The translations under genes and the position numbers were made by a program. This document shows positions 14,639 to 49,824 of a stretch of 64,000 nucleotides of DNA, piece after piece (positions within the stretch are counted from its first letter, which is position 1; each line of letters starts with the position of its first letter). The notes under the pieces were generated by a model. It worked only from the letters and a program-made list of their open reading frames with translations. It was not told the DNA's origin and searched no databases. Origin of the DNA: a virus (lineage: Duplodnaviria; Heunggongvirae; Uroviricota; Caudoviricetes). Where the stretch lies: positions 13,231-77,230 of IMG/VR virus record IMGVR_UViG_3300050026_000282. The stretch is one strand, 5' to 3'.

Positions 14639-14968
14639 CTAATCAGGTATTTCGCCGTACAACATCGCCCAGAGGATCACAGAGGCAATCTGTCCGCGCT
14701 TGGTCGCTCCAGTAAGTTCGTAGTACGACGTTCGGCGGTCCACCGTGTAATAGGTGATTACTCCACACCGACGAAGTATGGGCAGAACGCATTTCGGCAC
14801 GGTTGGGTTGATGGCAATTCGAGAAGAAAGGTAGTCGAGGAGTTCATGGATGTAGAAACGGGGCTTGCCGGACTCTATCCGCTCGTAAACGAAATCTTCG
14901 ATGCTTTCGCCGAGGCTGTTTTCGCCGAGGCGGTCTTCTGCTGTGCTAAGTGGTTTATGTTGTGTCAT
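14639..14968 (-). CDS. winged-helix-like protein, paralog 2
   Basis: Internal ATG with GGAG RBS; FVYERIESGKPRFYIHELLDYLSSR...VLPILRRCGVITYYTVDRRTSYYELTG. Confidence 0.4.
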   Translation of the reverse strand: MTQHKPLSTAEDRLGENSLGESIEDFVYERIESGKPRFYIHELLDYLSSRIAINPTVPKCVLPILRRCGVITYYTVDRRTSYYELTGATKRGQIASVILWAMLYGEIPD

Positions 14969-14972
14969 TGGT

Positions 14973-16067: not shown

Positions 16068-16245
16068 GGTGGGGTCCTTGACGGAAGCCTTCCAGGAAAA
16101 GTACGGGGTCGTTAGCTCGCAACTGCCGTAGGCTATTCCGGCAGTCGTTGTCTTCCTCGCAATGGACGAGGAAGCTGGCGACCTTGTCCAAATGGACGGC
16201 ACCCGCTTTGAACGCAATCTCTTTCGCACGGTTGTAAGTAATCAT
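16057..16245 (-). CDS. hypothetical protein (62 aa)
   Basis: ORF track. Confidence 0.3.
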   Translation of the reverse strand: MITYNRAKEIAFKAGAVHLDKVASFLVHCEEDNDCRNSLRQLRANDPVLFLEGFRQGPHHAS

Positions 16246-16258
16246 TCAGGTGTCCTTT

Positions 16259-16855
16259 CTATAGATAGGAACAGTTGAGAAGGCCGAGTGTCGCACGAAT
16301 TCCCAGAAGATTCCTGAGAATGTGTTCTTCTCGTGGAGTCGCCCACAGATCGTTCCACGGGGCCGGCACAGTGATGGCATTCCCGCCGTGCTTGCGGAAC
16401 AAATCGACGTTCACCGAGTAGTCGTCGATCAGGATTGAGTCTCTAGTGGCCAGCAGCCACTTCCTTGGCGTGATGAAATACTGGCGGTGAAGCCAGTCGG
16501 GTAGATTCTTGTGAATCCACTCCAGCTTGCCGGCGAGGCAGTCGGGGTCTTTGGTCGTGCTCGTGGCGATGTAGATGTTGTCTCTGCCGGCCACCGACTC
16601 GCACGTTGCGAGCAGCCAGGGGAGCAACGGAGAGCGCGGGGTGTCTGCCCACGTCTTTCTCCCAAGCGCCTCCCAGAAACTCGCTTCCGTTGTAAACCGC
16701 TGCTCTCCCAGAAGGATGTTTGCGCCTGCCACGATGTCATAGCCCACGTCCGGCAGCCCTTCGTAGCTTGTCGGACTGACCGGGCAGCCGACAAGGTAAA
16801 GCGCATAGGGAGTGAACGTGTTGCACACATCATCCATGTCAAGGAAGATTCTCAT
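16259..16855 (-). CDS. 5'(3')-deoxyribonucleotidase (HAD superfamily, NT5C-like)
   Basis: MRIFLDMDDVCNTF matches HAD motif I of deoxyribonucleotidases; downstream DxxxD-like LIDDYSVN. ATGA-coupled to sigma factor stop. Confidence 0.65.
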   Translation of the reverse strand: MRIFLDMDDVCNTFTPYALYLVGCPVSPTSYEGLPDVGYDIVAGANILLGEQRFTTEASFWEALGRKTWADTPRSPLLPWLLATCESVAGRDNIYIATSTTKDPDCLAGKLEWIHKNLPDWLHRQYFITPRKWLLATRDSILIDDYSVNVDLFRKHGGNAITVPAPWNDLWATPREEHILRNLLGIRATLGLLNCSYL

Positions 16856-17439
16856 GCGCACAGTTCCTTTACGTGTTCTTCGTAGCGGGCGCGGATGGCA
16901 TGAAAGTTGTCGATCACAGTCCGGCGGGGAATGCCGACCAACTGGGCTATTTCAGGGAACGTGTAGCCATCCTTCCGAAGGCGAACTAACTCGCGGTCCA
17001 AGGGCGTTTCACACGCAGATTTGATCTGGTCGGCTTCGTCAACGACTGCGACGGTATCAAATCGGGTTCCCATCGTCCGCTTACTCAAGTCCGTTTCGCT
17101 GGACTGGTAGGGGGCGTGCCGAGCGGCCTTGTGGATAGCATTACGAATCGACTTCGACATATACGCGGTGGGACCCTCCCTGGTCAGAGTTGTGGCTGGC
17201 AGGGTGTTGACCGCGCGTGTTAGTGCCAGAAACGCTTCGCTCGTTAGGTCATCGCGTAGATATTCAAAGTCTGTGTTTGACTTCAGGTAGTCATCGACGA
17301 TGCTCACCACCATCAGCATGTTGCCAGTAATCATCCTCTGGTGCGCTTCTTCGTCGGGAAGTAGAGCATAGAGGGCGTCGTTGTCAGGGGTCTCACAAAC
17401 AGCCTTCATGTTGCTGACAAGTTCAGTGTTGTACTTCAC
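16852..17439 (-). CDS. sigma-70 family RNA polymerase sigma factor (ECF-like)
   Basis: Region-4 HTH LRKDGYTFPEIAQLVGIPRRTVIDNFHAIRARY; region-2-like segment upstream. Confidence 0.5.
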   Translation of the reverse strand: MKYNTELVSNMKAVCETPDNDALYALLPDEEAHQRMITGNMLMVVSIVDDYLKSNTDFEYLRDDLTSEAFLALTRAVNTLPATTLTREGPTAYMSKSIRNAIHKAARHAPYQSSETDLSKRTMGTRFDTVAVVDEADQIKSACETPLDRELVRLRKDGYTFPEIAQLVGIPRRTVIDNFHAIRARYEEHVKELCA

Positions 17440-17451
17440 AGGTAGTCCTAG

Positions 17452-17919
17452 TTACTTGGTCACGATCCAGGCACAGTTAGCTCGAAAGTCGGTGATTGCT
17501 TCCATGCCGTCGTAGCGATAGATTTGTCCTCGCGGGTCACAAATCTGCCCGTGGTCATAGGCGACCGCATGGCCGCAGCGGCTCGTCTTTCCCGTCAGCA
17601 CGCCACGGCCCCTTTGAATGGCAAAGTCGAACGCGAACTTGTTGTCGATCCAGATGCCATCAATCGGGCTAGATTGCTTAGGAGCCATTGCAGGGCAACG
17701 TTCGATTGCCGTGATCTTCCAGCCGGCCAGATAGAGAGTCGTGATGATCTCCTGGATATGCCAGGATCGCCGGCGCATTGGCTCGGGAAGGTCGGGCCAT
17801 TGGATACAGCTTCCATCGTGGCCGAGCTTCTCAATGAGGTTCTCGACCGGACAACCGATGGCCATTGCGAAGGCGGTCGGCAAGCACGACCAGGCGTTGG
17901 GAGAGTTCTGTAGGCGCAT
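17452..17919 (-). CDS. papain-like cysteine peptidase (C39-like), paralog A
   Basis: Q..NAWSCLPTAFAMAIG (Gln/Cys) and GHAVAYDHGQICDP (His) mirror the catalytic layout of 18347..18871. Confidence 0.4.
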   Translation of the reverse strand: MRLQNSPNAWSCLPTAFAMAIGCPVENLIEKLGHDGSCIQWPDLPEPMRRRSWHIQEIITTLYLAGWKITAIERCPAMAPKQSSPIDGIWIDNKFAFDFAIQRGRGVLTGKTSRCGHAVAYDHGQICDPRGQIYRYDGMEAITDFRANCAWIVTK

Positions 17920-17972
17920 ATTGCGAAACAGTTAAGGTTGATGAGGCTTCAATCAGACGGGTAAGAAGAGGT

Positions 17973-18350
17973 TCACACTATTTCGTCAAGCATGGCGTCG
18001 ATCTCTGCTTGCGTCGGTATCTTCCAGCTACTCTTGACGAAGTCGCGCCAGTTGGGCGGCTTGAACAGCCGGTCGTAGTTCTCCTGGTCGGCACCCGTGA
18101 GAATCCAGATGCCGGTTCCGTATCGCTCCCAAATGGGCCACTTCCGCTTCTGGGCCTTCGTGAACGAGTAGCGCCCCTTGTTCTTTACATCGATCCACCT
18201 CTCGCCCCACTTTGGATGACGGCAGTACAGGTCGGGAATGCCCGTCTGGAACGCATTGCCGATCATTCGCTCGACGAGCCAGCCCCTCGCCTTCAAGAAG
18301 ACCATTAGGTCTTCTTGGATGAAGTATTCCGGCCCGTGCTTAGCTCTCAT
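17973..18350 (-). CDS. VRR-NUC domain nuclease
   Basis: GIPDLYCRHPKWGERWIDVKNKGRYSFTKAQKRKW, the PD-(D/E)xK VRR-NUC signature. Confidence 0.7.
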   Translation of the reverse strand: MRAKHGPEYFIQEDLMVFLKARGWLVERMIGNAFQTGIPDLYCRHPKWGERWIDVKNKGRYSFTKAQKRKWPIWERYGTGIWILTGADQENYDRLFKPPNWRDFVKSSWKIPTQAEIDAMLDEIV

Positions 18351-35463: not shown

Positions 35464-38400
35464 CTAGTTCTGTAAGAATGCCGTCCCTGCACCAAACTTC
35501 TCGCCATCTTCGTCGAACTTGAAGTCAAATACGGCTTCATCGTCGCCGTCTGACCAGTTGGCGTCCGTGTCAATCATCAGTTGGCCGTCATCGTCGATCC
35601 CGCAGAATACACTCTTCAAGACAGTCACCTTGTCGCCGATCTTGATGGGCGTCTTTTCCAGGTCGATACTGGAATCCTGGATGACTCCGTTCTCCGGTTG
35701 CCAGTAACTTTGGAACGTCCATTGGACTTCGTCGGTCGGATCGGCGTAGTCCGTCGTCAGGTCAAGGTCAGCCTTCTGGGTCGAATCAAACACATAAGCG
35801 CTCGGGTCCACAACTGTCTGGGCCTGGAAGCCGGTGTCCATCGGGACTGAGTCGCCTTGGTCGCAGTTTTGCCCGAACACCACGTTCGTCCCGCCGACAA
35901 ATACCGTGTGACTGATCGTGCTTGTGTCACCAACTGGCAGTGGTCCGTTCGCGCCCGAGCCAGGTCCACCCGAGCCCGAATCCTCACCAGCAGGTGGCCA
36001 GGTCATGGATTGCGGCAGATCGGCCGGCCAGAACCAGGGGTAGGCCACCGAAGTGCCGGCCATGACCGGCGTCAAGCACTGGAAGTGAATGCAGTTGTTC
36101 GCCGAGTCGTACCGCGCACTCTCCACAATCGCCTTCACCGGCCCGCTGGCTACGTAGGGGTGCGTGAAGTTCAGCAGGACCGTATCGAAGGTTTCGAGGT
36201 TCAACTTGTGGAGAGGCGTGGTAAACCGCACCCGTTTCCAGGTGTTGGACTTGCGAATCAACCAGAAGGTGGCCATCTTGTAGACGATGTCGGGTTGATT
36301 GAAGATGTAGTAGTCGTAAGACGCCTCGTGAATCAGGTACTTCTTGATGTTGTGCCGCAAGACTACGCTATAAGCGTTGTCTTTGATGTTGCCAGGATCA
36401 TAGGACAGGTTCGAGACAGGTCCGACAACGGGGCCATATCCCCCTTGCTGCCATTGCAGTGTCGTCAGGCGGCCGGCCGGGGTTGCGTAGCGAAGATGCC
36501 AGCCCACGGTCATCTTCGTCACCAACTCTTCGGTCGAAGTCAATTCCACTTCGATACCACTCTCGGCATCAATGTCGCTCTCGGTGATCGTGTCATCTAC
36601 GGCAGGCTCTTCGGGCAAATACTTCATGTAGACCGTGCCGTTGTCGATCCACAGAGCGCAGCGGGCTTGGAAGGCGATCTCCTGGAGCACCTGGAGCACG
36701 TTCCGCTTGTCGTTGATGGGGAAGTTGGCCGGGAAAGCCGCCAACCTCGCCTCGACGTGGGTGAAGCTCGCGGGATCGCACGCTAGGTCGGTGTACTGCT
36801 CGACAATGTACTCCATGATGTCGGCAATGTTGGGGCCTATCGTGGACGCGAAAGTCACGTAGATGTCATCGCGCCAACCTTGGTCGAGAATGTGGCTCAG
36901 TGGCTTGTCCAGGACAATCTCAATCGCAGTGATCGTGCCATAGACGGTCGTCTGCACGGAGTACAAGTCGGTCGGCACGTCCACCAAGCGTGTGACGCCG
37001 CTTTCGACCTCTTTGAAGGCCCGGACCGCCAGCACGGTGCCAGGGGTGATGGAGGCGATGTAGACCTTCTGGTCGCCCGTGTACAACGTCACCTCTGCTC
37101 CGGGCTCCGACCAGACTTGTTGAATGACGGGTTCCCGGCTAGCAACGGCTTCCATTGTTGGGGTGACGATCTCTTCCACTTGCCAAGAGTAGTCCGTCCA
37201 CTGAGTTCCGTCGATGCTCGTCGGTATCTTCGTGACGACGTGCTTGTCCCCGTTCATGGGGAAGTACCAGAAGAAGGTCTCTTTTTGGGCTACGTTGGTG
37301 TTCTGCCATGTACCAGCGAGAGCCTTCAAAACGATTTGATGGGCAATATCGTTGAGGGATTGCGAGACGTTGTTCGCAAACGGGCTGTAGACGGCGTTCA
37401 GGATTTGCTGGACGACCCAACGCCACTCCATGTTGTTGCTGCTGATGACATCCTGGTCGAGCAGTTTGGCATTGTAGGCTCCGTATGCCTTCTGGGTCAG
37501 TTCATCATTGGACCGGTCTGTGACGGTAAACTCCGTGCCGTTCATCTGACCCGTGTACAGGCCGCCATCAATCAAGAGGGTGATCGTCTTGCCTTGAGGG
37601 AAGTCCTCGCCGCCAAGGATGTGAATGGGGTTAGGGCCGAGACCATTGGCAGTCGCCTCTTCAATCTTCTTCTGGCGGCGCAATTCGCACGCTGCTTCAT
37701 TCTCAGTGAACTCTCGCAGTTTGGCGACGACGGCGGCCCAGAGGTTCGTATAATCGTTTTGGTACTTGGTCAGAGACGTTTGGAAATTGTTGGCCGCAGT
37801 CTGGTAGTGGCTAATGATCTGCGCCATCGTCGTCCAGACCTGCGCCGGTGTTGCTCTACTCGCATCGGCGTTCTGGGCGTTGGTGTTGCTGATGTTGCTG
37901 ATGTCGGTTGCCGCATTCGTGACCAGATTGGGGACGGTGTAGAGCGTGGACACCGTGCCGTCGCCGTTATTGACCGTTTGCGTCGTGACGCTGTAATCAG
38001 CCAAGTTCTGCGGCGGATTCTGGCTTAGATCACTCACCGCCGCCTGGGCTTTCGATAGATAACCCTTGAAAATGTTAATCAGGTCCGAGTAGGTCGCCAG
38101 GTTGTAGCACGACTTGGCGATCTCGATGTCGAAGCTGACATCGCTCACCGAAGGGAGACTCAGCAACAAGTCTTGACCGGCCAGAATGCCAACCGGCGTG
38201 AGCGTATTGCCAGTGATGGCCGGCTGGACGAAGAGGGTCGGGTTGTTCATTACCGTGCCAAAGATGATTGGCCACGGTTTGTTGCACATCGAAGCCGGCA
38301 GATACTTGAACTCGCCTTCGTCGGCCGAGAAGCCGATCTCGCGGTCCTCAAGCTGCGAGAGGATGGTCAACTTGACCGTTCGGTCGTGCTCGTTCCATGA

Positions 38401-38760
38401 AATTGGACTGGTGACGACGCCGGCGAACAGCAGGAAACGGTCCGACATGCTGAGACCGGTGAAATACTGGTACACACGAGCCGGGACCATGTGCGGGTCG
38501 TGCGAGTCGAAGAGGGCCTTGATCGAACCGTCCGTGTCGTCCAGCGCTATCGAAAGGGAAGTCGAACCGCTGTGACCGGTCAGGTTTACCGCACTGTCCA
38601 AATCGCCAAGTTCGACGATCTTGCCGGGGATCGAGCCAATCGTCTTGTCGGCATAGCTTTGAGTGCCGCCAGCGACCCAGTCGATCTCGATAATGCAGAC
38701 CGGTTCGTTGCCGAGCTTCGTTCGCAGCTTCGTCAGGCCGTTTGCTGAAATGTTTCTCAC
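35464..38760 (-). CDS. large tail protein (host-specificity / central fibre-like, 1098 aa)
   Basis: Size and position immediately downstream of the tape measure/fibre block; N-terminal NGLTKLRTKLGNEPVCIIEIDW. Confidence 0.55.
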   Translation of the reverse strand: MRNISANGLTKLRTKLGNEPVCIIEIDWVAGGTQSYADKTIGSIPGKIVELGDLDSAVNLTGHSGSTSLSIALDDTDGSIKALFDSHDPHMVPARVYQYFTGLSMSDRFLLFAGVVTSPISWNEHDRTVKLTILSQLEDREIGFSADEGEFKYLPASMCNKPWPIIFGTVMNNPTLFVQPAITGNTLTPVGILAGQDLLLSLPSVSDVSFDIEIAKSCYNLATYSDLINIFKGYLSKAQAAVSDLSQNPPQNLADYSVTTQTVNNGDGTVSTLYTVPNLVTNAATDISNISNTNAQNADASRATPAQVWTTMAQIISHYQTAANNFQTSLTKYQNDYTNLWAAVVAKLREFTENEAACELRRQKKIEEATANGLGPNPIHILGGEDFPQGKTITLLIDGGLYTGQMNGTEFTVTDRSNDELTQKAYGAYNAKLLDQDVISSNNMEWRWVVQQILNAVYSPFANNVSQSLNDIAHQIVLKALAGTWQNTNVAQKETFFWYFPMNGDKHVVTKIPTSIDGTQWTDYSWQVEEIVTPTMEAVASREPVIQQVWSEPGAEVTLYTGDQKVYIASITPGTVLAVRAFKEVESGVTRLVDVPTDLYSVQTTVYGTITAIEIVLDKPLSHILDQGWRDDIYVTFASTIGPNIADIMEYIVEQYTDLACDPASFTHVEARLAAFPANFPINDKRNVLQVLQEIAFQARCALWIDNGTVYMKYLPEEPAVDDTITESDIDAESGIEVELTSTEELVTKMTVGWHLRYATPAGRLTTLQWQQGGYGPVVGPVSNLSYDPGNIKDNAYSVVLRHNIKKYLIHEASYDYYIFNQPDIVYKMATFWLIRKSNTWKRVRFTTPLHKLNLETFDTVLLNFTHPYVASGPVKAIVESARYDSANNCIHFQCLTPVMAGTSVAYPWFWPADLPQSMTWPPAGEDSGSGGPGSGANGPLPVGDTSTISHTVFVGGTNVVFGQNCDQGDSVPMDTGFQAQTVVDPSAYVFDSTQKADLDLTTDYADPTDEVQWTFQSYWQPENGVIQDSSIDLEKTPIKIGDKVTVLKSVFCGIDDDGQLMIDTDANWSDGDDEAVFDFKFDEDGEKFGAGTAFLQN

Positions 38761-39152
38761 TGCTCGACTCCCTCGAATTCCAGTTCAATGTGTACACTCT
38801 CGCCCGCAGGCATCGGTGTTATCGCTGGTCCGGCATATTGGAAGGTGTCGAACTCAAAGGGATTGTTCACCAGATGTCCCTCCCACACTCGGTTGTTGTG
38901 GTCGGTCAACTGAATCGGTGAAGCGAAGTAGGATGTGATGAAGGCTCGCAACTCCAAAGCCTTGTTCCGGGTCAAGCGGAATATCCACCGCAGTTTCCGC
39001 CTGTCCTTTTTCTTGACGTAGGTGTACCGGGTCCCATCAATCGCCAGCTTACGGCTGATGGTGGCCATCACTTCTTCCCCATCGCTCACCAGCGGATTGG
39101 GCAAGTAGGTCGTCGTTTGGTAGATTGGCACTGGGGCCTGTAGTGTGAACAT
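38757..39152 (-). CDS. tail-associated hypothetical protein (about 131 aa)
   Basis: Internal start MFTLQAPVPIYQ, coupled to the stop of the upstream fibre paralog. Confidence 0.35.
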   Translation of the reverse strand: MFTLQAPVPIYQTTTYLPNPLVSDGEEVMATISRKLAIDGTRYTYVKKKDRRKLRWIFRLTRNKALELRAFITSYFASPIQLTDHNNRVWEGHLVNNPFEFDTFQYAGPAITPMPAGESVHIELEFEGVEQ

Positions 39153-40174
39153 TAGACGCTCTTCATACCAAAAAGGGCCGAAGCGATAGTTGCGCTGGTC
39201 CAAGCCAGCCCGCTCAGATCAGTGTCAAAAACGCGGCGGTAGTCAACATAGCTCGAAGTTAAGGACTGAGTCGCTCCATCGCTCTCCGTGCCGTTCTGTG
39301 AGCAAACCAAGGAAAGGCCGTTAGTGCCCCCAGCCAATTCCTTAGCTGTCACCTCCAACTGAACGCCATAGACCGTGAGCCCGGAGAAGTTCGCGCCAAA
39401 GGGGTTAGTGAGACTGTAAAGGTCCATCTGCGCCGGCACACTGGTCGTCACGTAGCTCGTGCCGTCCGGCGGGCACTCGGCGAGAAGTGGATAGTGACTC
39501 GTTCCACTGCTCGTGGTCCACTGGACGGTTCCATCGGCGCTTGGATAAAGGACTGCAAAGGCCGTGCATGGGCCGGGATAATCGTTGTTGACCGCCCCGC
39601 TCCCATCGAGAATATAAATCTGGTCGAGCGTGTCTGCGCCCGTAGGCCCGAAGGACATCCGCACGACGTTGTAGAAGGCATCAGTTCCGGCTCGGGTGTT
39701 CTGGGCGGTGAGACTGAGCCGCGAAGTGCTGGACACCCAGACTTGGACGGTGCCGGTCGTTGCGTGGCAAAGGACCTTAATGGCAACAAAGTACCAGCTT
39801 CCCGCCGTAACGGCCGCCCCGGTCGTCTTACCGAGCAGTGTAGTTCCCCGGTAGACATAAATCTCCTGCGTCAGCGGGTCCCACTGCACGTCGATGCCAA
39901 GGGTGGTGCCGTCCCGCAGTTGTAGGAACGAGTGAGCGGCGGTGGTGGCCGTCGAACCACAGAATCGTAACCCGACGACCAACGTCGAATTCGTCGTCAG
40001 CGCGGGTGTTTCCAAGTACGCCCCGCTGCTGGAGGCACCCAGGCCGAGGCCGCCAAAACAACTATTGACTGCCTGAAAGGTGCCATTGACTGTGGCGTAA
40101 CGGTACGCCAAGTAGCTGGTGATTGTCGAACTCGCCGGGCCGTAGGACTCAGCGCTATCCATCCAGACGAACAT
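39152..40174 (-). CDS. tail fibre-like protein, paralog D (starts MFVWMDSAESYG)
   Basis: About 340 aa. Shares TPALTTN.TL.VGL, D.Q(W/N)(D/N)PLTQEI.V.RG.TLLG, QWTTSSGTSHY, DYRR and AWT blocks with the other three paralogs. Confidence 0.5.
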   Translation of the reverse strand: MFVWMDSAESYGPASSTITSYLAYRYATVNGTFQAVNSCFGGLGLGASSSGAYLETPALTTNSTLVVGLRFCGSTATTAAHSFLQLRDGTTLGIDVQWDPLTQEIYVYRGTTLLGKTTGAAVTAGSWYFVAIKVLCHATTGTVQVWVSSTSRLSLTAQNTRAGTDAFYNVVRMSFGPTGADTLDQIYILDGSGAVNNDYPGPCTAFAVLYPSADGTVQWTTSSGTSHYPLLAECPPDGTSYVTTSVPAQMDLYSLTNPFGANFSGLTVYGVQLEVTAKELAGGTNGLSLVCSQNGTESDGATQSLTSSYVDYRRVFDTDLSGLAWTSATIASALFGMKSV

Positions 40175-41217
40175 TATGCCACCTCCACTCCGATCTGAGC
40201 CGCAACGATACTGGTCGGGGTCCATGCCAACCCCGTGGCAGGGTCGCACTCCAAGACTCGTCGGTAGTCGATAAAGCTACCACTCCCGACAACCTGGCCA
40301 GCATCATTGCTCGTCACACCGCCAGAGATCGCCGGAGTAATCAGAGTGTTCGCCGAGTCGGTGATCTGCCGGCAAGTCGTGTTGATCTGAATGCCGGCCA
40401 CCGCCGTAAAGGCTGTTGGTGCTGAGTAGGTGAAGGTATCGATCTTCCCCGAAGTTCCCGTTTGCACGTTCGTGGTGCTGTCGTCGGCCGGATTCTCATT
40501 CACGAGACTGTAGTGGCTTGTGCCGGCGCTGGGCGTCCATTGCGAAGTCGCGTCGGCGGCCGGAAAGATCGCCGAGACCGTGGGGCATCCGAGGAAGTAG
40601 TTGTTGTTGGTCCCTGTCCCGTCTGCGATGTATAGGTCGTCGATCACGTAGCTGGCAAGGGTCGCGCCGCCTCCACCAGACCCTACCCAGACATGGTCGT
40701 AGTAAGCGTCAGCGGTCAGCGTGTTCTGCCCCGTGAGCAACAACTTGGTCGAGCCACCGACGCGCAGCTCAATTACCCCGGCCGTCGCGCTGCAATAGCA
40801 TTTGAACTCAAGGTAGAACCAGGCACCTTGAGAGATCGCCGCTCCAGACGTGGTTCCAAGAAGGTTGCCGCCGAGGTAAACTGCAATCTCAGAGCCGGCC
40901 GGCTGGAAGACAATCCCTTGTGAGGAACCGTCATACAACATGCAGTACGCATAACCAGCCCCGGTTCCAAGCGCGCCTGTCCATTTGACGGCGAGGCCGA
41001 CGAACAACGTCGGGCTCGTCGTCAGGGCGGGAGTCACGAGGGCACAGGAGTTCGAGGTCCCGGCTCCCTGGTGCCCGTAGCCACCATTCCGGCCGCTGGC
41101 CAGATATTGATGCCCCGTGTTACTCAACATGGCATAGCGGCGGGTCAGCAGCGACTCAATCGCGGTTGAGGTCGTTGTCCCGTAGCCCTCGAAACCGTCA
41201 ATCCAAAGCAGAGCCAT
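40174..41217 (-). CDS. tail fibre-like protein, paralog C (starts MALLWIDGFEGYG)
   Basis: Same family; internal ATG adjacent to the stop of the repeat protein. Confidence 0.5.
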   Translation of the reverse strand: MALLWIDGFEGYGTTTSTAIESLLTRRYAMLSNTGHQYLASGRNGGYGHQGAGTSNSCALVTPALTTSPTLFVGLAVKWTGALGTGAGYAYCMLYDGSSQGIVFQPAGSEIAVYLGGNLLGTTSGAAISQGAWFYLEFKCYCSATAGVIELRVGGSTKLLLTGQNTLTADAYYDHVWVGSGGGGATLASYVIDDLYIADGTGTNNNYFLGCPTVSAIFPAADATSQWTPSAGTSHYSLVNENPADDSTTNVQTGTSGKIDTFTYSAPTAFTAVAGIQINTTCRQITDSANTLITPAISGGVTSNDAGQVVGSGSFIDYRRVLECDPATGLAWTPTSIVAAQIGVEVA

Positions 41218-41218
41218 G

Positions 41219-43462
41219 TTAAGTCTCCAACAGGATGCCGGTAGCAGGGTCCAACTCGCCTTCAAAGCTAAAACTAGCTGAGAAGCGTCCACGGGTGTCC
41301 TCGATGACCGGCGACTCAGGCGTCATAATGATGCCCCGCCAGTAACGATGCTCCCAGTCCATCAGCCCGACCTCGACTCCCAAGTGATTCTCGAAGAAGC
41401 TCAATAGCTGCTGAGTCTCACTTCTCAGCAGAGAGGAAAAGTTCAACACGAGCGTCTGCGTCTTAGGCCAGATCGGGTCAGCGAACACAATGAGCGTGCC
41501 GCCACGGGTCTCACGCAGTACGCGATTGAAACCCAAGCGATCTTTGTTGCCGAGATTGGGCATTCTCCGAAGCGTCACTGAATCTGTAACTGTACTGGTC
41601 GCCGGATAGAGAAGCTGGAAGCGGGTCGTGACGGCAAGTGGGCCGTCAAGTGACGGCAGCGCACCAGCCGGACTATAGCGGTAGAGCGTGTCTGCGTCCG
41701 ACCGAGCCGATAAAAAACTCTCCGTCCAAGTGAGGGTGTCGCCGTACTGTTGTGATGTTCGTCGGACCAGTCCAAACTGCTCACCGAATCCCAGTGAATC
41801 AGACAGCCACTTGCAAGTTGCTGCGGCAAAGTTATCCGAGAACGTCAAGAAGTCAGGGAAGCTACCAGTCTTGTTCCGGTAAACGCCCTCGCTGAGGGGC
41901 AGAGTATCACTGAACGCAATCGACTTGGCCGACGCCTTGAGTATGTACCCGCCAAAGGACTCACTTAGTTGAAGATTGTCAACCTGCGATTGGACCGACA
42001 ACTTGACAACCGAGTAGGTATCTTGCAGGCCGGAGATCGTCTCGATTGTCGCAAGGGTCGTCGGGTCAAGCGTGTCCGTGATGGTTTGTAGGGCGTCCGA
42101 GCACCCGAGTTGGCCAGGAGCCTTGAACGCGGGCGTCTCGACCAAGAACACAACATCGGAATACCCCACCGAGCGAGCATTACTTCTCGCTGTGTCAACG
42201 AGAGCCAGAGTGTCTTTGTATGCTAGGACAGGGGTGGTTTGACGCAACGCCTCACTGAAGGTGATTCGATCAGTCGTCGCAACAGTGACATGCCGGAGGG
42301 TGAAAGTCTCGGTAAGGGAGAGGCTGTCGGAAGTCGCCACCCAACCCGAGCAATCGAACTTATCAGTAATCGCCAAACTGTCAGAGTTGGTGCGGCCTTT
42401 GACGTGAGTGTCGAAGGATTCACTGAGGACAAGCGAATCGGTAAGAGCCTCCACTGCCAAGCTCGAACGACAACTGTCAGCGAAGGCGACCGTGTCCGAG
42501 GTGGTAACTTGGGCGATGACCGGTCGATAGAGTGTCTCGGATAGTGTGAGAAGATCGGCAGTGGAGATCAGGCGCGGGCCAATGCTTTTCTCTTGGTCCG
42601 AGAGACTGATGGCGTCAGTCGCTTTGAGATTGAAAATGTGCGCGAGAACGGTTACTTCAGAGAGGGTGAGGCTGTCAGAGAAGTGTACGTTGGCAACCCG
42701 CGTGAGAGCGGTTACTTCCGAGAGGGTCAGCGAATCACTCGCCGCTTTGACACGGACGGAAGAGAATGACTGGGACTCAGAAAGAATGAGGCTGTCGCCA
42801 GTGTTCGCTGTGGTCTCGGGAACGAAGACGTTGCTATCCGTCAGACTCAGCGTGTCAGAGGTATTGCAACTCCATATCTTTAGCGTTGGCCACCCGAGGA
42901 CTTCGACCATTTGTCGGGTGAGTGCGACCCCGGCGACGGGCTGGCCCCAAACCTCAGCACAGACGCGAGTAACGGTGGAGGCGGTGTTCGGGGAGACTTT
43001 TAAGACCGAATATAATTCGGAGAGAGCCAAACTGTCAGGAGCCGAGTCAATGAACACTACGTTAGTTAGAGCTTCGACTAATTGGCGGCTGACACGCGCA
43101 GGCCCGGTAGGACGTGTGAGGACCTCAGTTGATTGTCGGCTGACGCAGAGAGCGCTAGGCGCGAGAACCAACGCCTCCATCATTTGTCGGCTAATTTTCG
43201 CCCCTGCACCGGTGTGTGACAGGACTTCGCCGGACTGACGGGTGACGTAAACATACCCTGCATACGTGACCAGCGACTCGTACATTTGGCGGCTAGCGCG
43301 CGCCGCACCCGGAGTGCTGCTCAGCACCTCGTCAGTCTCGCGCGTGGCACGAACTCCACCGACGCCCGAGATCAGCGCCTCGACCACCTGGCGGCTAACG
43401 CGCGCATTGCCGGTGGACTTGCTCAGCGCTTCGGACGCCTCGCGGGTGATGCGAAGAGTCAT
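41219..43462 (-). CDS. highly repetitive tail/adhesin-like protein (747 aa)
   Basis: Six N-terminal ~23-aa repeats with core (A)RxSRQxxEAL, then more than 20 degenerate SDSLTLSET-type units, then a unique C-terminal domain (FENHLGVEVGLMDWEHRYWRG). Confidence 0.55.
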   Translation of the reverse strand: MTLRITREASEALSKSTGNARVSRQVVEALISGVGGVRATRETDEVLSSTPGAARASRQMYESLVTYAGYVYVTRQSGEVLSHTGAGAKISRQMMEALVLAPSALCVSRQSTEVLTRPTGPARVSRQLVEALTNVVFIDSAPDSLALSELYSVLKVSPNTASTVTRVCAEVWGQPVAGVALTRQMVEVLGWPTLKIWSCNTSDTLSLTDSNVFVPETTANTGDSLILSESQSFSSVRVKAASDSLTLSEVTALTRVANVHFSDSLTLSEVTVLAHIFNLKATDAISLSDQEKSIGPRLISTADLLTLSETLYRPVIAQVTTSDTVAFADSCRSSLAVEALTDSLVLSESFDTHVKGRTNSDSLAITDKFDCSGWVATSDSLSLTETFTLRHVTVATTDRITFSEALRQTTPVLAYKDTLALVDTARSNARSVGYSDVVFLVETPAFKAPGQLGCSDALQTITDTLDPTTLATIETISGLQDTYSVVKLSVQSQVDNLQLSESFGGYILKASAKSIAFSDTLPLSEGVYRNKTGSFPDFLTFSDNFAAATCKWLSDSLGFGEQFGLVRRTSQQYGDTLTWTESFLSARSDADTLYRYSPAGALPSLDGPLAVTTRFQLLYPATSTVTDSVTLRRMPNLGNKDRLGFNRVLRETRGGTLIVFADPIWPKTQTLVLNFSSLLRSETQQLLSFFENHLGVEVGLMDWEHRYWRGIIMTPESPVIEDTRGRFSASFSFEGELDPATGILLET

Positions 43463-43463
43463 A

Positions 43464-44483
43464 TTACTGGACTTTCACGCCGAATGTTGCCGCATTCAAT
43501 GCTGTCGGCGTCCAAGCCACACCCGTGTTGGGGTCCGTCTCGATGATGCGTCTAAAGTCCGAGTAGGTCGTAATTGAGACGGTCTGCGCAGTGCCATCAC
43601 TCTGGGTGCCCGAGTAGACTGGCATAAGCAGATTGTACGTATTGGTATCAGTTACGCGGCAAGCGGCAACAAGTTGGACGCCGATGATTGTCGCCGCTCC
43701 GTAGGCAACCTGCGTGTATCCGTAGAGATCGGTCTGCCCCGACGTGGCGCTTGAAACCCAGGAAGTATCATCGTTGGGCGGGTTCTCGTTCACCAGGCTA
43801 TAGTGTGTCGATCCACTGCTCGTTGTCCACGCTACCGATGAGTCGGTGGTTGGCAACAGTAGTCCGACGACATTACAGAGTCCCAAAAAGTCGTTATTGA
43901 CCGAGCCACTTCCATCGGTGATGTAAGCGGAATCAACGCCATTGCCACCGTTAGACCCAAAGTAGAACCGCACGGCATTGTGGTAAGAGTCAGTCCCCGC
44001 CTTCGTGTTCTGGCCGGTCAGCAGCAATTTGGTAACGCCGGCGACCCGAACCTCGACTGTCCCTGCCGATCCGTCACACTTAACCTTGACTTCAATGTGC
44101 ATCCACGTACTGGGCGTGAGGTTGGCTCCTGTGGTGGTGCCGAGGGCGGTTGAGCCTCGGAGGACAGTAATCTCCTGCGTCAGGGGATTCCACTGCACGT
44201 CAATCCCGAGGGTGCCCCCATCGTAAAGTTGTATAATCGAGTGCGCGGCGGTCGTGCTCCACACGGGATTGAATCGCAAACCAACGGCCAGCGTGGCATT
44301 GGTTGTAAGTGTGGGGGTCATAAGGTAGGCACCTCCACCACCCGTCACGCCAAGGCCGTTGGGGGCTCCGCACGTCGTTATCGTGCCGTTCACCGAGGCG
44401 TAACGGCGGCCTATCATCGTTGTGATATTCACCGACGATGCGGCAGCGTAGGACTCAAATCCGTCAACCCAGAGGAGTGCCAT
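43464..44483 (-). CDS. tail fibre-like protein, paralog B (MALLWVDGFESYA)
   Basis: Same family. Confidence 0.5.
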   Translation of the reverse strand: MALLWVDGFESYAAASSVNITTMIGRRYASVNGTITTCGAPNGLGVTGGGGAYLMTPTLTTNATLAVGLRFNPVWSTTAAHSIIQLYDGGTLGIDVQWNPLTQEITVLRGSTALGTTTGANLTPSTWMHIEVKVKCDGSAGTVEVRVAGVTKLLLTGQNTKAGTDSYHNAVRFYFGSNGGNGVDSAYITDGSGSVNNDFLGLCNVVGLLLPTTDSSVAWTTSSGSTHYSLVNENPPNDDTSWVSSATSGQTDLYGYTQVAYGAATIIGVQLVAACRVTDTNTYNLLMPVYSGTQSDGTAQTVSITTYSDFRRIIETDPNTGVAWTPTALNAATFGVKVQ

Positions 44484-44485
44484 GT

Positions 44486-45532
44486 TTAACCTACCTTTAC
44501 ACCAATCTGTGCCGCTCCGAGCCCAGTAAGGGTCCAGGCCGCACTCGTCGCAGGATCAAGCTCAACGATACGCCGTCGATCCACATAGCCACTCGCGCCA
44601 ATTATCTGACCAGCGTCGTCGCTTTCGACACCGTTCGAGATTACCGGAGTTATTAGATTATGGACGCTATCCGCCGACTCTCTGCAAGTCGTGGTGATCT
44701 GAACGCCGGCAATTGAAGTGACCGGCGGCAGACCCGTGTACGTATAGAGGTCTGCTTGTCCCGTTGTGCCTTGCACATACGACGTGTCATCGTCTGACGG
44801 GTTCTCGCTCAGCAAGTTGTAGTGCGTAGCACCCGAACTTGTCGTCAATTGCGTACTCGCGTCACCGTTAGGAACAACCGCCACAACCTTGTGGTTGCCG
44901 AGAAAGTTGTTGTTTACCGATCCGGCACCATCAAGGATGTAAACATCGTCAATGAGATAGTTGCCCAACGTACCACCACCGCCGCCCGAGCCAAAGCGTA
45001 CCCGGTCGTAAAAGCCGTCAGTGCCCGCCTTTGTGTTCTGGGCAGTCAGCGATAACTTCGTCACGCCGTTTACCCGGACCTCAACGGTTCCGAGCGTTGC
45101 ATGACAGTAAACTTTGAGTTCGACGTAGTACCATGTGTTGATTGCTATTCCGGCACCACTCGTGGTCCCCAAAAGTGTACTGCCACGGTAGACACCAATC
45201 TCCGCAGTAGCGGGCTGGAGGCAAATGCCCTGCGTCGTACCATCATAGAACTGACAGTAGTCATAGGTATTGTCTCCGCCGAGGCTACTCCATTTCGCGG
45301 CCATGCCAATGACAAGCGTGGCATTCGTTGTCAGCGCCGGGGTCTGTAGACAACACGCACCGTAGTTACCGGTGCCCTGTAACGAATAACCACTAAAGCG
45401 TCCCGCCGCTAGATACTGATGTCCAATGCTCGTTAGGGCCGCATAGCGGCGACTCATGAGTCCTTCCACCGCGTTCCCGCTGCCGGTGACGGTCCCGTAC
45501 CCCTCGAAGCCTTCGATCCACAAGAGAGACAT
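44486..45532 (-). CDS. tail fibre-like protein, paralog A (MSLLWIEGFEGYG)
   Basis: Internal ATG of track ORF 44486..45886; upstream 118 aa is R/H-rich read-through. Confidence 0.5.
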   Translation of the reverse strand: MSLLWIEGFEGYGTVTGSGNAVEGLMSRRYAALTSIGHQYLAAGRFSGYSLQGTGNYGACCLQTPALTTNATLVIGMAAKWSSLGGDNTYDYCQFYDGTTQGICLQPATAEIGVYRGSTLLGTTSGAGIAINTWYYVELKVYCHATLGTVEVRVNGVTKLSLTAQNTKAGTDGFYDRVRFGSGGGGGTLGNYLIDDVYILDGAGSVNNNFLGNHKVVAVVPNGDASTQLTTSSGATHYNLLSENPSDDDTSYVQGTTGQADLYTYTGLPPVTSIAGVQITTTCRESADSVHNLITPVISNGVESDDAGQIIGASGYVDRRRIVELDPATSAAWTLTGLGAAQIGVKVG

Positions 45533-45588
45533 TGGTTGGACTCCAACAAAGTGAAGAGGGCCATCCGTGGCCCATTGCAAGGAAATCG

Positions 45589-46185
45589 TTATGCGCCCAC
45601 CGAGTAGGTGAACTTCAACTGATCGCCGATGGCGGCCACGTTGTCGCCCGAGGAGAACAGACCTTCCGACCAGAGCACTCCACCGGCCGTGTGATCGCCC
45701 TTCGTCTGGGCTGATGCGCCACCGCAAATGAACGCGCCTTTGATGGTGCCGGGCGAGGTAATGTCGAAGATGGCCGGGGTGCTGTTGGTGATCGCTTGGG
45801 CAGATGCCGAAGCTGCCGCCCACGCGGGGCGGGTCGTGCTGCTCTGGGCGTTGGCATCGTCGTTGTAGCCGGTGAACTCTTTCCAACCGTCCGCAGTCTG
45901 GCCGATGTCGGCGTAATCGTCGGCGACGGCCAAGGCCGTGTAACTCACGCTACTGACAAGCCCGACATACCAAGTCGTAAGCTGGGCCGTGCCCTTGAAC
46001 ATCGTATTGAACATCCGGTTCTTCCCCTCGTTCGTGACGAGGTTGTGGAACGGATACTCGGCGATCTTCTCGCCGTTGCGCCAGTGCTCCATCAGGAAGC
46101 GACCTTCCAACTTCAGGGCATCCTCTTCGCCGCGCTTCCGCACCGACATCACAGCCGCACTCTCTTGCATTTTCAGCGTATCCAT
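45589..46185 (-). CDS. tail-associated hypothetical protein (198 aa)
   Basis: ORF track; placed between tape measure and fibre block. Confidence 0.4.
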   Translation of the reverse strand: MDTLKMQESAAVMSVRKRGEEDALKLEGRFLMEHWRNGEKIAEYPFHNLVTNEGKNRMFNTMFKGTAQLTTWYVGLVSSVSYTALAVADDYADIGQTADGWKEFTGYNDDANAQSSTTRPAWAAASASAQAITNSTPAIFDITSPGTIKGAFICGGASAQTKGDHTAGGVLWSEGLFSSGDNVAAIGDQLKFTYSVGA

Positions 46186-46206: not shown

Positions 46207-49200
46207 CTACAGAACTGCTAATCCCCTACGTAGCTCGCGGCGTAACTCAACCGCGATTGACCTTGCTGTCTGCTTTCCGCTCGCACCTCCGTTTACCGTG
46301 ACGTTGATGTCCCCGACCGTTGTCGTTTGGCCGCCCTCATTGCGGAACACGGGCTGGGTGCCTGCATTCATGGCAATGAGTTGTGAGGCGAACTTGCGAC
46401 TCGATGCCGCATTGATGACCATTTCGCCCGGCGATAGCATTGCCGGGATCGTGTCGCTCCCCCGGCCGCCGTCCGCACGATAGATGAAGTTCCCAGTGCA
46501 AGCAGTTTGCGGCTTGTCACCATAAACAGCCGAGACGCCGATCAGATTCTCCCAAGCATCAGCAAGATTCTGGATCGACTCAATCTGGTCGTTGATCGCA
46601 CTGGTCTTGTTGCTAATTGCCTGCGTCTGCTGATTGATAATTTGCAAGACGCGCTGGGCATCCTGAGCATCTTTCTTACTGTCCGGTGGGGCGCTCTTTT
46701 CCAACGCCTGTCGCTGCTTCATCAACTCCAGCATGTTCTCCATCGGTGTGGCGATCTGGGTGTTATTCCAAGGGCCGGCCACATGACGAGTGTTGTCTTG
46801 ATTCAAGAGTGTCTTGAGTGAGTCTTCCTTGTTCTTGCCATACTTCCCCTGGTGGAATAACTTGTTGGCTTGTAATGCACCGGCCACGAGGTCTCGCGTT
46901 GCCTGCTCCTGGCGCGGCGTATTCTGGTGCGAATAGTTGTTGATGCCTTCTTGAAAGTGAGCATATTGCTGCGTAAAAGCTGACGAGTTCTTGCGCATCT
47001 CTGTTTCGTACTGCCGCCGTGCAACTCCGGCTGCCAGGGCCTTATTTGCCTTGTCTTGAGCGTCCTTGGCTAATCTGTCCACACCGACAACACCCACCGA
47101 TTCACCGGTGTATCTCTCAAGGTCCTTTGTTCCAGCAACCTTTGCGCCGAGCTTTGCGCCCATGCCCTCAAGCTGAGCCCGCAGCCGCTCCAATGCTTCT
47201 GGCGCGAACTCGACTTGTCGAATCTGGAAGCCACCAGCCTCTCGCTCCGCGCGACGGAACATTGCCTGGAAGGCTTCCGGGTCATTCATAAAGGGTTCGC
47301 TGAAGTCTTTGCCGTAACCCTTGACATCCGAGACGAGCTTCTGCGTGGCGGTTTGAAGTCTGGTCTGGTGCTGCTTGAACTCGGCCGAAGTCATCGGACG
47401 CTCTTTACCGTTCTCGTCCGTGACGGTCTTCTTCTGGAGCTTATCGATCTCCGTGATGTCGGCCTTGATCGTGGCATTGTGCTCTTCCGACTTGTGCGCC
47501 CGTCCCTCCGTCAGTTCGGCGATCTGCGTCTGAAGCTCTTTTTCCTTTTCCAAGGACACAATGCGCTGGTTCTCGACATCGTCCAGGTACTTGGCTGCCG
47601 TGATCTGCTCTCTGGAGCCCTGACCCTTGGCCAGTTCCGCCGTCTTTTGCGCCCACATCTGTGCCCGATTCATCTTCTCCTGGGCAATCTTCTCTTCGAC
47701 GGGGTCCTTAGCAGTCGCAAGTGCCTGGCCGGCTTCCTTGATGGCAGACTCGGTCTCTCGCGTGTACCTGCGGAACAGGGCCACCGGATTTACTTCACGG
47801 TCGGGGTTCCTTGCCTCTTGCTCGTGCAAATGGCCGACGACAGGCCGAGCAAGAGGGGACAGCATCGCTTCGTCCCGCTGCTTCGTCCTCAACTCTGAAA
47901 TCGTCCGAGGAAGTTCCTCGTCAGCCTTCTTGTGAGCCGCCTCCGAAGCCGAAAGCATCTCTTGGGTCATCTGGCGGCGGGCCTGCATAACGTGGTCAAG
48001 TGACATCTTGGTCACTTCTTCCTCGACCAGCGCCGACCGTTGAATATCCTGCCGCTGTTGAAGTAGAGTCTTGTTTGCTTCAGCGGCTCGCTGTCTATAA
48101 CCACGGATAATCGCCTCAGTGGCCCGCTCTGCCTCTCGAATCTGATCGTCCGCTGCTTGCTTTATGTTGCTCAGTTCTTTCGCGTAGGTGACACCCTCGG
48201 CCTCGAAGCGGGCGTCCATCCCCTTCCGAAGCGACTCGCCGATCAACGCACCACCGATACGGGCCTCTTCGACAAGGCCGGCGAACATAAGACCTTTGGA
48301 AAGAAGCCCCGAGAAACCACCAATACCGCTGAGAAAGCCACCCTTGCTGGCGGAACTGGCGCTTGTCGCGCCCAGCATGACATCAATATCTCGCGTAGCG
48401 GTCCGTACTGCGGCTCCGGCGGCGACTGTATCGGCCGCCGCCGTCTTCGTGCGCATCGAGTAGAGAAGCCATGCAGTGGAAGCCGCACCGAGCGCCGCAC
48501 CAATGTAAGGCAGATCGTGGGTGATCGTCTTTATGGTGGAAAGGAAACCATCTGCGCCGGCGGTCAGGGACTTCATCGTGTGAACGATGTCCGTCCCGAA
48601 CTCGGTCGTGAAGTAGTTCTTAACCTTGTTGAGTTCCTTTGTGACTTGCTCAGCGTCGGTCGAGGAGAAGTCGATAAGTTTGCTGTTGAGGGTTTCGGGA
48701 TTGACCGATAGGGCACGGTCCAACGCTTCTTTGTATTTCTGAGCACCTTCGCCGCCGATACGCAACTCACCGACCAAAGCCCGCATGTTGGGGAACATGG
48801 CGGAAAGCTGCGATGCGGCGCTCCCGCCTACCTTCTGCAACTGCTGCAAGGCTCCGGCGAGCCCGTAAGTAGCAATGAGGGCGGGACCCGACTCAACGCC
48901 CAATTGCTGATAGGCTTCCTTCAGATCGGCGGAAGGCTTCAACATGCCCATCATCACGCTACGAAGTTGCGTGCCGGCTTCGTTGGCCTTGACGCCGCCA
49001 ATGGAGATCGTCACTAGGGCGGCTTGCAACTCCTCAACACTCACACCCAACTCATGGCCGAGTGTTTGAACGCGCCCCATTGCCGTGGCCAGGTCAGCCA
49101 TACGGAAGTGCCCGAGAGCGATGGCCTGGTCGAACTGGGCCGCCCGCAATGCCGCCTTGTCGGCCGACTCGCCGTAGGCGTTGAGGGTGCCGGCAACGAG

Positions 49201-49824
49201 AGAGACGGCGGTTCCGAGTTCTTGGCAACTGACCTTGGCCAAGGCATTCGATGCAGTCAGCAGCTTGGATTGATCGGCTACTTTGACGAACTGATTCGAG
49301 ATCGCCTGATACTGACCTTCGGCCACGTCGGAGATTGGCTGGTTGAAAGCATCGGAGAGTTGCCGGATGGTGGTGGCGATCTCACCATAGCTGCGCGAAG
49401 AGTCAACGGCGTGAATCTCGGAAACTGCTTTCTGGAACTTTAAGGCAGCCTCGTAGGACTCCGTGATGGCGTCCCGCACCGTGTTGTACGAACGCAGAAT
49501 CAACTGCGTTTGAGCAACGCGGGCCAAAGTCTCCCAACTCAGGACCCAATGATTCGTCTGCTGGCGGGCGAGGTTGGCGCTGCGAGCGACTTCATTGATG
49601 CCGCTGGCCAACCGGGGCATTTGGTTGGCCGCCCCGCTGGCCGATTCCTTTATCCGTAGCAGCGACGTATCGGCCGCCGCACTATTGAGAATGCCCAAAG
49701 CCGACGCGGTCTTCGTCAAGCGATCACTGAAGGCCGTGAAGCCGTTCTCCAACAGGCCCAATGTCTCAAGGACTTGGTGCGCGTCGAGAACCATCTGCTG
49801 ACGAATTTCTTCTTCGTTCGTCAT
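46207..49824 (-). CDS. tail tape measure protein
   Basis: 1205 aa; long coiled-coil segments and TP901-type TMP core (GTAVSLVAGTLNAYGES...RAAQFDQAIALGHFRMADLATAMGRV...GVKANEAGTQLRSVMMGML). Confidence 0.85.
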   Translation of the reverse strand: MTNEEEIRQQMVLDAHQVLETLGLLENGFTAFSDRLTKTASALGILNSAAADTSLLRIKESASGAANQMPRLASGINEVARSANLARQQTNHWVLSWETLARVAQTQLILRSYNTVRDAITESYEAALKFQKAVSEIHAVDSSRSYGEIATTIRQLSDAFNQPISDVAEGQYQAISNQFVKVADQSKLLTASNALAKVSCQELGTAVSLVAGTLNAYGESADKAALRAAQFDQAIALGHFRMADLATAMGRVQTLGHELGVSVEELQAALVTISIGGVKANEAGTQLRSVMMGMLKPSADLKEAYQQLGVESGPALIATYGLAGALQQLQKVGGSAASQLSAMFPNMRALVGELRIGGEGAQKYKEALDRALSVNPETLNSKLIDFSSTDAEQVTKELNKVKNYFTTEFGTDIVHTMKSLTAGADGFLSTIKTITHDLPYIGAALGAASTAWLLYSMRTKTAAADTVAAGAAVRTATRDIDVMLGATSASSASKGGFLSGIGGFSGLLSKGLMFAGLVEEARIGGALIGESLRKGMDARFEAEGVTYAKELSNIKQAADDQIREAERATEAIIRGYRQRAAEANKTLLQQRQDIQRSALVEEEVTKMSLDHVMQARRQMTQEMLSASEAAHKKADEELPRTISELRTKQRDEAMLSPLARPVVGHLHEQEARNPDREVNPVALFRRYTRETESAIKEAGQALATAKDPVEEKIAQEKMNRAQMWAQKTAELAKGQGSREQITAAKYLDDVENQRIVSLEKEKELQTQIAELTEGRAHKSEEHNATIKADITEIDKLQKKTVTDENGKERPMTSAEFKQHQTRLQTATQKLVSDVKGYGKDFSEPFMNDPEAFQAMFRRAEREAGGFQIRQVEFAPEALERLRAQLEGMGAKLGAKVAGTKDLERYTGESVGVVGVDRLAKDAQDKANKALAAGVARRQYETEMRKNSSAFTQQYAHFQEGINNYSHQNTPRQEQATRDLVAGALQANKLFHQGKYGKNKEDSLKTLLNQDNTRHVAGPWNNTQIATPMENMLELMKQRQALEKSAPPDSKKDAQDAQRVLQIINQQTQAISNKTSAINDQIESIQNLADAWENLIGVSAVYGDKPQTACTGNFIYRADGGRGSDTIPAMLSPGEMVINAASSRKFASQLIAMNAGTQPVFRNEGGQTTTVGDINVTVNGGASGKQTARSIAVELRRELRRGLAVL

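Follow-up and report, generated by a model that had tools for sequence, protein, structure and literature searches.

Multi-copy cassettes of receptor-binding proteins are known from tailed phages such as CBA120, which carries four tailspikes, and Klebsiella phage PhiK64-1, which carries many depolymerases. A different arrangement is found in GP4, where an extended "rope" protein runs through the Fiber-1 dimers, and in Bas63, where the collar protein, which forms a ring, has an N-terminal extension that serves as the rope and carries several whisker dimers (PMC12609058). Here we analyze a 64,000-nucleotide stretch, referred to below as the window, of a virus of the class Caudoviricetes (IMG/VR record IMGVR_UViG_3300050026_000282, positions 13,231 to 77,230), which encodes four diverged copies of one gene among its tail genes. 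The proteins belong to PHROG 2448, a family of more than 18,000 clusters at 50% identity that is without a Pfam family, solved structure, or assigned function; in many phages, among them the flagellotropic model phage Chi (gp32-34), it lies in the part of the tail that recognizes the host. A preliminary description of the window had presented the four genes as fiber-like paralogs and proposed a cassette of alternative or multivalent receptor-binding proteins.

Four paralogs, their family, and its copy number

The four genes lie on the minus strand at 44486-45532 (copy 1, 348 amino acids), 43464-44483 (copy 2, 339 amino acids), 40174-41217 (copy 3, 347 amino acids), and 39152-40174 (copy 4, 340 amino acids, the most diverged of the set). 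As translated from the window, all four open reading frames are intact, each with an ATG start and a TAA stop, and the proteins begin with the N-termini MFVWMDSAESYG, MALLWIDGFEGYG, MALLWVDGFESYA, and MSLLWIEGFEGYG. Their four-way alignment contains 85 invariant columns spread over the entire length, with 39-49% identity to the first sequence; pairwise identity among the copies is 38-56%. Because even the most distant pair, copies 4 and 3, is aligned by BLASTP with E = 9e-63 under composition-based statistics, these are true paralogs, as the preliminary description had it, and their likeness is due neither to chance nor to low complexity. No sequence repeats were seen within the four proteins.

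The copies fall into two subtypes. Subtype A, comprising copies 2 and 4, carries the block DVQW(D/N)PLTQEI (DVQWNPLTQEI in copy 2), whereas subtype B, comprising copies 1 and 3, has QPA(G/T)xEI in its place, together with the motif GHQYLAxGR and a GGGG loop. The list of sequence blocks originally credited to all four genes must be shortened accordingly: TPALTTN, LTxQNTxAGTD, SGTSHY, DYRR, and AWT are common to the set, but the DVQW block is confined to subtype A. Along the direction of transcription the gene order is B-A-X-B-A, where X is a 747-amino-acid repeat protein (41219-43462), with two copies on each side of X as first noted. The placement of the array between the tape measure gene (46207-49824) and the gene for a 1,098-amino-acid tail protein, here called Z (35464-38760), is likewise confirmed; two smaller genes that had gone unmentioned, S (45589-46185, 198 amino acids) and Y (38757-39152, 131 amino acids), also flank it. 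Junctions between the paralogs and their neighbors consist of spacers of 1-2 nucleotides or of TAATG overlaps, which points to a single operon.

All four paralogs match PHROG 2448, annotated as function unknown, from profile positions 1-2 to 333-334 of 335, with E = 1.6e-34 to 8.4e-44 (9.3e-38 for copy 1, over the full length; 4.5e-39 for copy 3; 1.6e-34 for copy 4). The family is very large and uncharacterized. A word-index search, in which 8,000 candidates were scored, yielded 422 relatives at E <= 1e-5, nearly all of about 340 amino acids and often several per contig, and traced the window to a 77-kb JGI metagenome contig. An exhaustive hidden Markov model (HMM) search over 1.84 billion cluster representatives recovered 25,105 clusters at 50% identity at E <= 1e-3, 18,687 at E <= 1e-10, and 9,230 at E <= 1e-30, again very uniform in length (nearly all about 340 amino acids) with a few fusions. 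The rare fused forms include P0330 (999 amino acids) and P0333 (820 amino acids); one such protein is matched in five stretches, and in another approximately 480 extra residues follow a complete family unit. Cultured phages with family members in their tail regions include Chi, Tetraselmis viridis virus S20, Mesorhizobium phage Cp1R7A-A1, and others. In Chi, gp33 (E = 1e-27) and gp34 (E = 3e-29) match the family HMM over their full length and gp32 matches more weakly (E = 1e-10), while gp35 matches in its C-terminal domain only. A blastn search ("distant" mode) with 7.2 kb of window DNA found no matches among cultured phages.

Comparison with related phages, which the preliminary description had suggested as a check, reveals that copy number does vary, from one to nine. 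Full-length copies were counted in the fetched stretch of each of 65 non-redundant loci: 34 loci have one copy, 16 have two, five have three, four have four, five have five, and one has nine. Copies within a locus are 27-79% identical to one another and, since this value never exceeds 79%, have been retained and have diverged. Across the multi-copy loci, the nearest relative lies in the same locus for 45 copies and in another locus for 52, a distribution that indicates, from sequence comparison, repeated independent tandem expansions in some lineages and conserved positional orthologs in others. The largest array, in locus L021 (IMGVR_UViG_3300029288_000054, 8970-18194), comprises nine full-length copies followed by two X-like genes; its copies are 45-60% identical to one another, and each has its nearest relative within L021.

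Within the window, copies 1 and 3 pair most closely (56% identity), as do copies 2 and 4 (49%), and residual DNA repeats are spaced 4303-4312 nucleotides apart, the combined length of B, A, and X. The pairing and the spacing together indicate that the two-gene B-A pair has been duplicated at a distance of about 4.31 kb. In the simplest history, a B-A-X unit was probably duplicated and the second X lost later, giving B-A-X-B-A. Units of family copies followed by X recur elsewhere, in L002 (three family genes and X, then two family genes and X) and in L011, L021, L044, and L048.

Predicted fold and function of the paralogs

An AlphaFold2 model of the copy 2 protein, computed from a 61-sequence alignment (predicted local distance difference test score, pLDDT, 95; predicted template modeling score, pTM, 0.92), is compact and all-beta, with two short helices only and two domains at approximately residues 1-200 and 205-339. 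The N-terminal domain is predicted to be a concanavalin-A-like jelly roll and the C-terminal domain a beta-sandwich, and Foldseek agrees. At the fold level, the N-terminal domain has the hallmarks of the concanavalin A-like superfamily, namely a curved two-sheet jelly-roll sandwich of about 170-200 residues that superposes on known members; Foldseek matches 2-4 are the alginate lyase Aly36B. Weak Pfam matches among the 61 family members all fall within the concanavalin-A-like clan: PF14099 (Polysacc_lyase) in five of the 61 and Laminin_G_3 (PF13385) in two, plus Cip1-like and GH43_C2, the best sub-threshold values being E = 0.0077 for PF14099 and 0.035 for Laminin_G_3. None of the four window proteins reaches the threshold of a curated concanavalin-A-like Pfam family, and none has a match to any Pfam family above the gathering threshold. 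The C-terminal domain is shared by sequence only with the function-unknown PHROGs 30887, 6368, and 10924 and with Chi gp35. Judged by the model, the four proteins belong to the concanavalin-A-like fold class and to no curated sequence family.

This compact two-domain structure does not bear out the label "fiber-like," and none of the four paralogs matches a tail-fiber PHROG or Pfam family. The proteins do not fit the definition of a tail fiber or tailspike, the monomer model being globular and lacking a shaft, a coiled coil, or a beta-helix. The suggested arrangement of a conserved N-terminal anchor and a variable C-terminal lectin-like domain holds in one respect: there is a lectin-like domain, but it is the N-terminal one, and because both domains diverge equally, an anchor with a variable head is not seen. 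Mean identity across the family is 36% in the N-terminal and 36% in the C-terminal domain, and pairs from the window are 38-59% identical in the former versus 38-53% in the latter. Conservation across the family peaks in three segments: residues 1-10, which form the N-terminal strand; residues 181-200, the linker between the domains (DDxYxxDGxGxxNNxFxG); and the C-terminal strand. Variability is greatest at residues 71-80 and 171-180.

We give slightly better than even chances to the interpretation that the paralogs are peripheral accessory proteins of the tail tip or baseplate, displayed together and binding glycans on the host surface. It is favored by the fold, the position in the operon, a copy number that varies, and a divergence well above that of Y, and it is from these that we infer presence in the virion, glycan binding, simultaneous display, and an attachment partner. 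Each paralog would be a compact unit of about 340 residues, combining an N-terminal jelly roll of the concanavalin-A-like type (as in lectins, carbohydrate-binding modules [CBMs], and polysaccharide lyases) with a C-terminal beta-sandwich. It would be made from a tail-tip operon along with the tape measure protein, the whisker-like S, X (with its putative distal-tail-protein-like ring domain at the C-terminus), the gpM-like Y, and the presumed hub Z. As peripheral tail-tip or baseplate subunits, the paralogs would bind host surface polysaccharide; tandem duplication followed by divergence would place several different glycan-binding heads on one virion, all displayed simultaneously, and the extra heads could add or broaden specificities and widen or strengthen adsorption.

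The notion of "alternative" proteins in the preliminary description finds no support in the layout of the genes. The copies all point the same way and are translationally coupled, neither an invertible segment nor any long repeat, direct or inverted, was seen around them, and the X gene showed no tandem repeats at the DNA level. Programmed switching between copies is ruled against by this organization, and simultaneous display appears more likely than a switch. If the paralogs are indeed glycan-binding tail-tip subunits whose number varies from one to nine by tandem duplication, they would commonly help to determine adsorption and host range in environmental siphophages, a role that has been overlooked, and the family would be a ready source of small, well-folded carbohydrate binders.

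Several considerations weigh against glycan binding. The concanavalin-A-like fold is generic, serving also as a purely structural domain and as an enzyme, and receptor-binding proteins are not usually encoded between the tape measure and distal-tail-protein-like genes. Divergence is uniform over the protein rather than focused in one "head," length is equally uniform at about 340 amino acids, and the terminal strands and interdomain linker are best conserved; such a pattern would also fit a lattice-forming structural subunit. No PDB chain related by sequence was found in searches with the 61-sequence family profile, a C-domain profile, or Chi gp34 alone, and no virion presence or solved structure of a family member was found in accessible papers or the PDB. 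The PIN1/PIN2, YSD1 architecture, and Chi flagellin papers contain nothing on Chi gp32-36.

An enzymatic role would make the paralogs tail-associated polysaccharide lyases (depolymerases) that cleave capsule or exopolysaccharide, with a substrate specificity differing from paralog to paralog. Their best structural matches are lyases, as seen in the Aly36B hits; five of the 61 family members match PF14099 weakly, one matches Cip1-like, and one matches a K1-lyase Rider domain; and conserved polar residues (E131, K133, T160, D184, D185, and D190) are located on beta strands. Every one of these Pfam matches is, however, under the gathering threshold, and the family lacks an invariant Arg/Gln/His/Tyr set of the PL7/PL20 (polysaccharide lyase families 7 and 20) type, a comparison made with sequence motifs rather than by structural superposition. 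The conserved Asp cluster (DDxYxxDG) resembles an active site less than it does a linker or a structural calcium site, and we consider lyase activity unlikely.

The same uniform length and conserved termini and linker would suit purely architectural subunits of the tail tip or baseplate, of the "upper baseplate protein" or wedge type, that hold S, X, and Z without binding the host, with extra copies making the baseplate larger or heteromeric. Each of the examined loci has one copy or more, the units of family array and X recur in the five loci named above, and X-type N-terminal repeats occur in the post-family gene of two distant cultured phages (hhalign E = 1.6e-4 and 5e-5). Yet the loci were retrieved by means of the family itself, making its constant presence partly circular, and a range of one to nine copies in otherwise syntenic modules is hard to square with a fixed structural lattice. 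Moreover, family identity is about 36%, as opposed to 61-87% for the core protein Y, a degree of divergence usual for parts that interact with the host; a solely architectural role seems to us rather improbable. Most improbable of all is that the paralogs are non-virion proteins, either tail-tip assembly factors or intracellular or host-directed products encoded in the tail operon by chance. No proteomic or structural evidence was found for any family member, and sequences of the Chi gp32-34 type match no PDB chain, which is compatible with, though not proof of, absence from the published Chi tail model. But cryo-electron microscopy models commonly miss flexible peripheral parts, a stable two-domain beta fold of the lectin type is atypical of phage tail chaperones, and the genes lie among structural genes to which they are translationally coupled.

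The surrounding tail-tip module

Neighboring genes were mapped by HMMs and jackhmmer in 70 IMG/VR loci and in five from metagenome-assembled bacterial or archaeal genomes, all of them carrying the family. In about 60 of these loci the order is tape measure, S (approximately 200 amino acids), one to nine family copies, X (370-890 amino acids), Y (approximately 135 amino acids), and Z (approximately 1,000 amino acids), with a homolog of X after the family array in nearly all related loci. The paralogs therefore belong to one conserved tail-tip module, and the module is itself uncharacterized: a set of accessory genes between the tape measure and two distal-tail-protein-like proteins.

The tape measure gene (46207-49824, minus strand) encodes 1,205 amino acids and matches PF10145 (E = 1.3e-17) and several tape-measure PHROGs. 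It is followed by S (minus strand; phrog_8123), a possible whisker or fiber subunit that always precedes the family array. S comes directly after the tape measure gene, which is the usual gene position of the distal tail protein, and is present in nearly all related loci. The S family profile matches PDB chain 26la_U, "Structural protein" (E = 3.4e-13), a 171-amino-acid chain in 26la/44nx, and four of 20 S homologs match PF23140, the podophage GP4 fiber I protein gp80 (best E = 5e-6); window S has no Pfam match. Against cultured phages, tblastn searches with S and with the N-terminus of Z gave few or no matches. The only sizeable spacer of the operon, 56 nucleotides between S and family copy 1, contains a hairpin (GGGCCACGGATGGCCC, 45558-45573, minus strand), GC-rich and with a partly T-rich tail, that matches a terminator-like consensus; it may be an attenuator that sets expression ratios, lowering the downstream genes relative to S.

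X (minus strand) has no match in Pfam or PHROG and consists of N-terminal 17-residue repeats, a middle region of repeats of about 20 residues, and a C-terminal domain predicted to be tail-tube-like. Eight consecutive repeats of exactly 17 residues each, of the form xxV[ST]RQxxExLxxxxxx (43040-43456, minus strand) have motif starts at residues 6, 23, 40, and so on to 125, and a ninth unit lies at residue 182; an HMM of the unit built solely from other loci finds all nine (E = 3.7e-26). The X homologs of about 60 related loci have zero to four such units, mostly two or three, and the array in the window is therefore expanded. The middle region (41870-43035, minus strand; residues 143-530) contains about twelve units of approximately 20 residues with the motif SDSLxLSE; this part of X varies among loci, with SDSLxLSE units in only some relatives (L011, L015, and L049). 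The C-terminal domain of about 130 residues (41222-41644, minus strand) is a paralog of Y according to hhalign. With independent alignments, X C-terminus and Y are matched with a probability of 97.4% (E = 9.7e-12 over 123 columns), S and family controls being negative; a Y-only HMM did not detect window X in hmmsearch, and the homology rests on profile-profile comparison. By homology to Y, this domain would have a tail-tube-like (distal-tail-protein) fold.

Y itself (minus strand) resembles lambda gpM, a distal tail protein or tube initiator, and has the tail-tube-like fold, with a beta-sandwich, a long hairpin, and one flanking helix, that characterizes the distal tail protein/lambda gpM class; its gene adjoins that of the presumed hub, Z. 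Z (minus strand) is conserved among relatives only in its N-terminal 190-235 residues or so and has no match in the PDB or Pfam; seven of 16 N-terminal homologs match phrog_2048, "tail protein" (best E = 2.6e-7). It is presumed to be the hub or central-fiber protein because its gene is placed after Y.

Genes that follow the family array in other phages also have repeats reminiscent of X. By eye, short X-like repeats are apparent in S20 (L003) TVGG_00031 at residues of about 150-215 (RASQVVIQAL) and at the N-terminus of Chi (L001) gp36 (xxVGEALxx), and repeats of the X type were seen by eye in Mesorhizobium gene 112. The 17-residue HMM detects no units in any of these three proteins. In hhalign the X N-terminal profile has moderate support in S20 (E = 1.6e-4) and Mesorhizobium phage Cp1R7A-A1 (E = 5e-5), and a relation to Chi gp36 is unsupported (E = 0.47). 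Family copy number correlates with the length of X upstream of the Y-like domain with a Spearman rho of 0.27 (p = 0.04, redundant loci included and no phylogenetic correction made), with the number of SDSLxLSE motifs at rho 0.22, and with the number of 17-residue units at rho -0.08. These values lend no usable support to a scheme with one docking site on X per family copy, which was set aside; copy number does not track the number of X repeats.

The resemblance of S to gp80 and the layout of X suggest a more elaborate interpretation, which we think quite doubtful, in which S, the four paralogs, and X together build an undescribed "beads on a rope" side appendage of the siphophage tail tip. The gpM-like C-terminal domain of X would anchor the protein in or on the distal ring, and the rope would be its long N-terminal repeat extension, along which the lectin-like paralogs and globular dimers of S would dock, by analogy with the GP4 Fiber-1 and Bas63 whisker complexes. 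Duplication of family genes or expansion of the rope repeats would then change the number or kind of glycan-binding heads.

Upstream of the module on the same strand, the window encodes the large terminase subunit, portal, scaffold, and major head protein; DNA polymerase, helicase, primase, ligase, and exonuclease are encoded elsewhere, and no transfer RNA genes were found in the window. Two adjacent, overlapping minus-strand genes (10770-11705 and 11702-12961) match the tyrosine integrase PHROG 1 (E = 4e-31 and 3.4e-43) and could represent a tandem integrase pair or a XerC/D-like pair. Complete modules are present in metagenome-assembled genomes of Planctomycetota, Anaerolinea, and others, in L075 (Pirellulales, on a 2.58-Mb contig), L077, and L078, with protein P0176 from Thermoguttaceae; these occurrences hint at prophages and at the range of hosts that the lineage has. 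Many frameshifts, which are probably sequencing errors, interrupt L002 and L078, the latter from an "archaeon" assembly.

Comparison with known systems

The rope-bearing complexes of GP4 and Bas63 bear on S and X; nothing links the four paralogs themselves to either. The likeness to GP4 lies in the S-family matches to PF23140/gp80 (E >= 5e-6), to which window S itself does not contribute. The layout of X, a ring-forming domain with a long N-terminal extension, recalls the Bas63 collar protein, but the predicted ring domain of X is tail-tube-like rather than Ig-like, and X would be placed at the tip of a siphophage tail rather than at the neck. Among enzymes of similar fold, the PL20 glucuronan lyases and the PL7, PL14, and PL36 alginate lyases (PF14099) lack the extra C-terminal domain of the paralogs, and all sequence matches to them are below threshold.

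In function, the paralogs would resemble, by analogy, the CBM-bearing baseplate proteins of siphophages that infect Gram-positive and mycobacterial hosts. Named cases with concanavalin-A-like or CBM domains are mycobacteriophage Douge gp23 (8zdo), the receptor-binding domain of TM4 gp23 (9n6a), and the CBM2 of the "evolved" distal tail protein of Lactobacillus phage J-1 (5ly8). The cassettes of CBA120 and PhiK64-1 offer a parallel in organization, with diverged host-binding proteins side by side in one virion and a copy number that differs between relatives. In those cassettes the proteins are trimeric beta-helix tailspikes of large size that attach in a branched fashion and have N-terminal adaptor domains, whereas the window paralogs, which have no recognizable adaptor domain, are small, globular, and uniform in length. 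From both groups the paralogs differ in being small, free-standing, uniform units with a C-terminal domain of their own, and differ further in gene position, between the tape measure and distal-tail-protein-like genes.

Chi is a cultured system that carries the family. Its gp32-34, members of PHROG 2448, likewise form a tandem array inside the tail module (the YSD1_32 region). The Chi proteins are just 25-27% or so identical to those of the window, homologs of S, Y, and Z went undetected in the Chi region by HMM and jackhmmer searches, and the Chi array, rather than lying between the tape measure and distal tail protein, comes after gp30, the J-like hub/fiber gene, and gp31. The occurrence of several host-binding tail proteins in tandem is already known; what is notable here is how large this unstudied family is and that a tractable model phage carries it.

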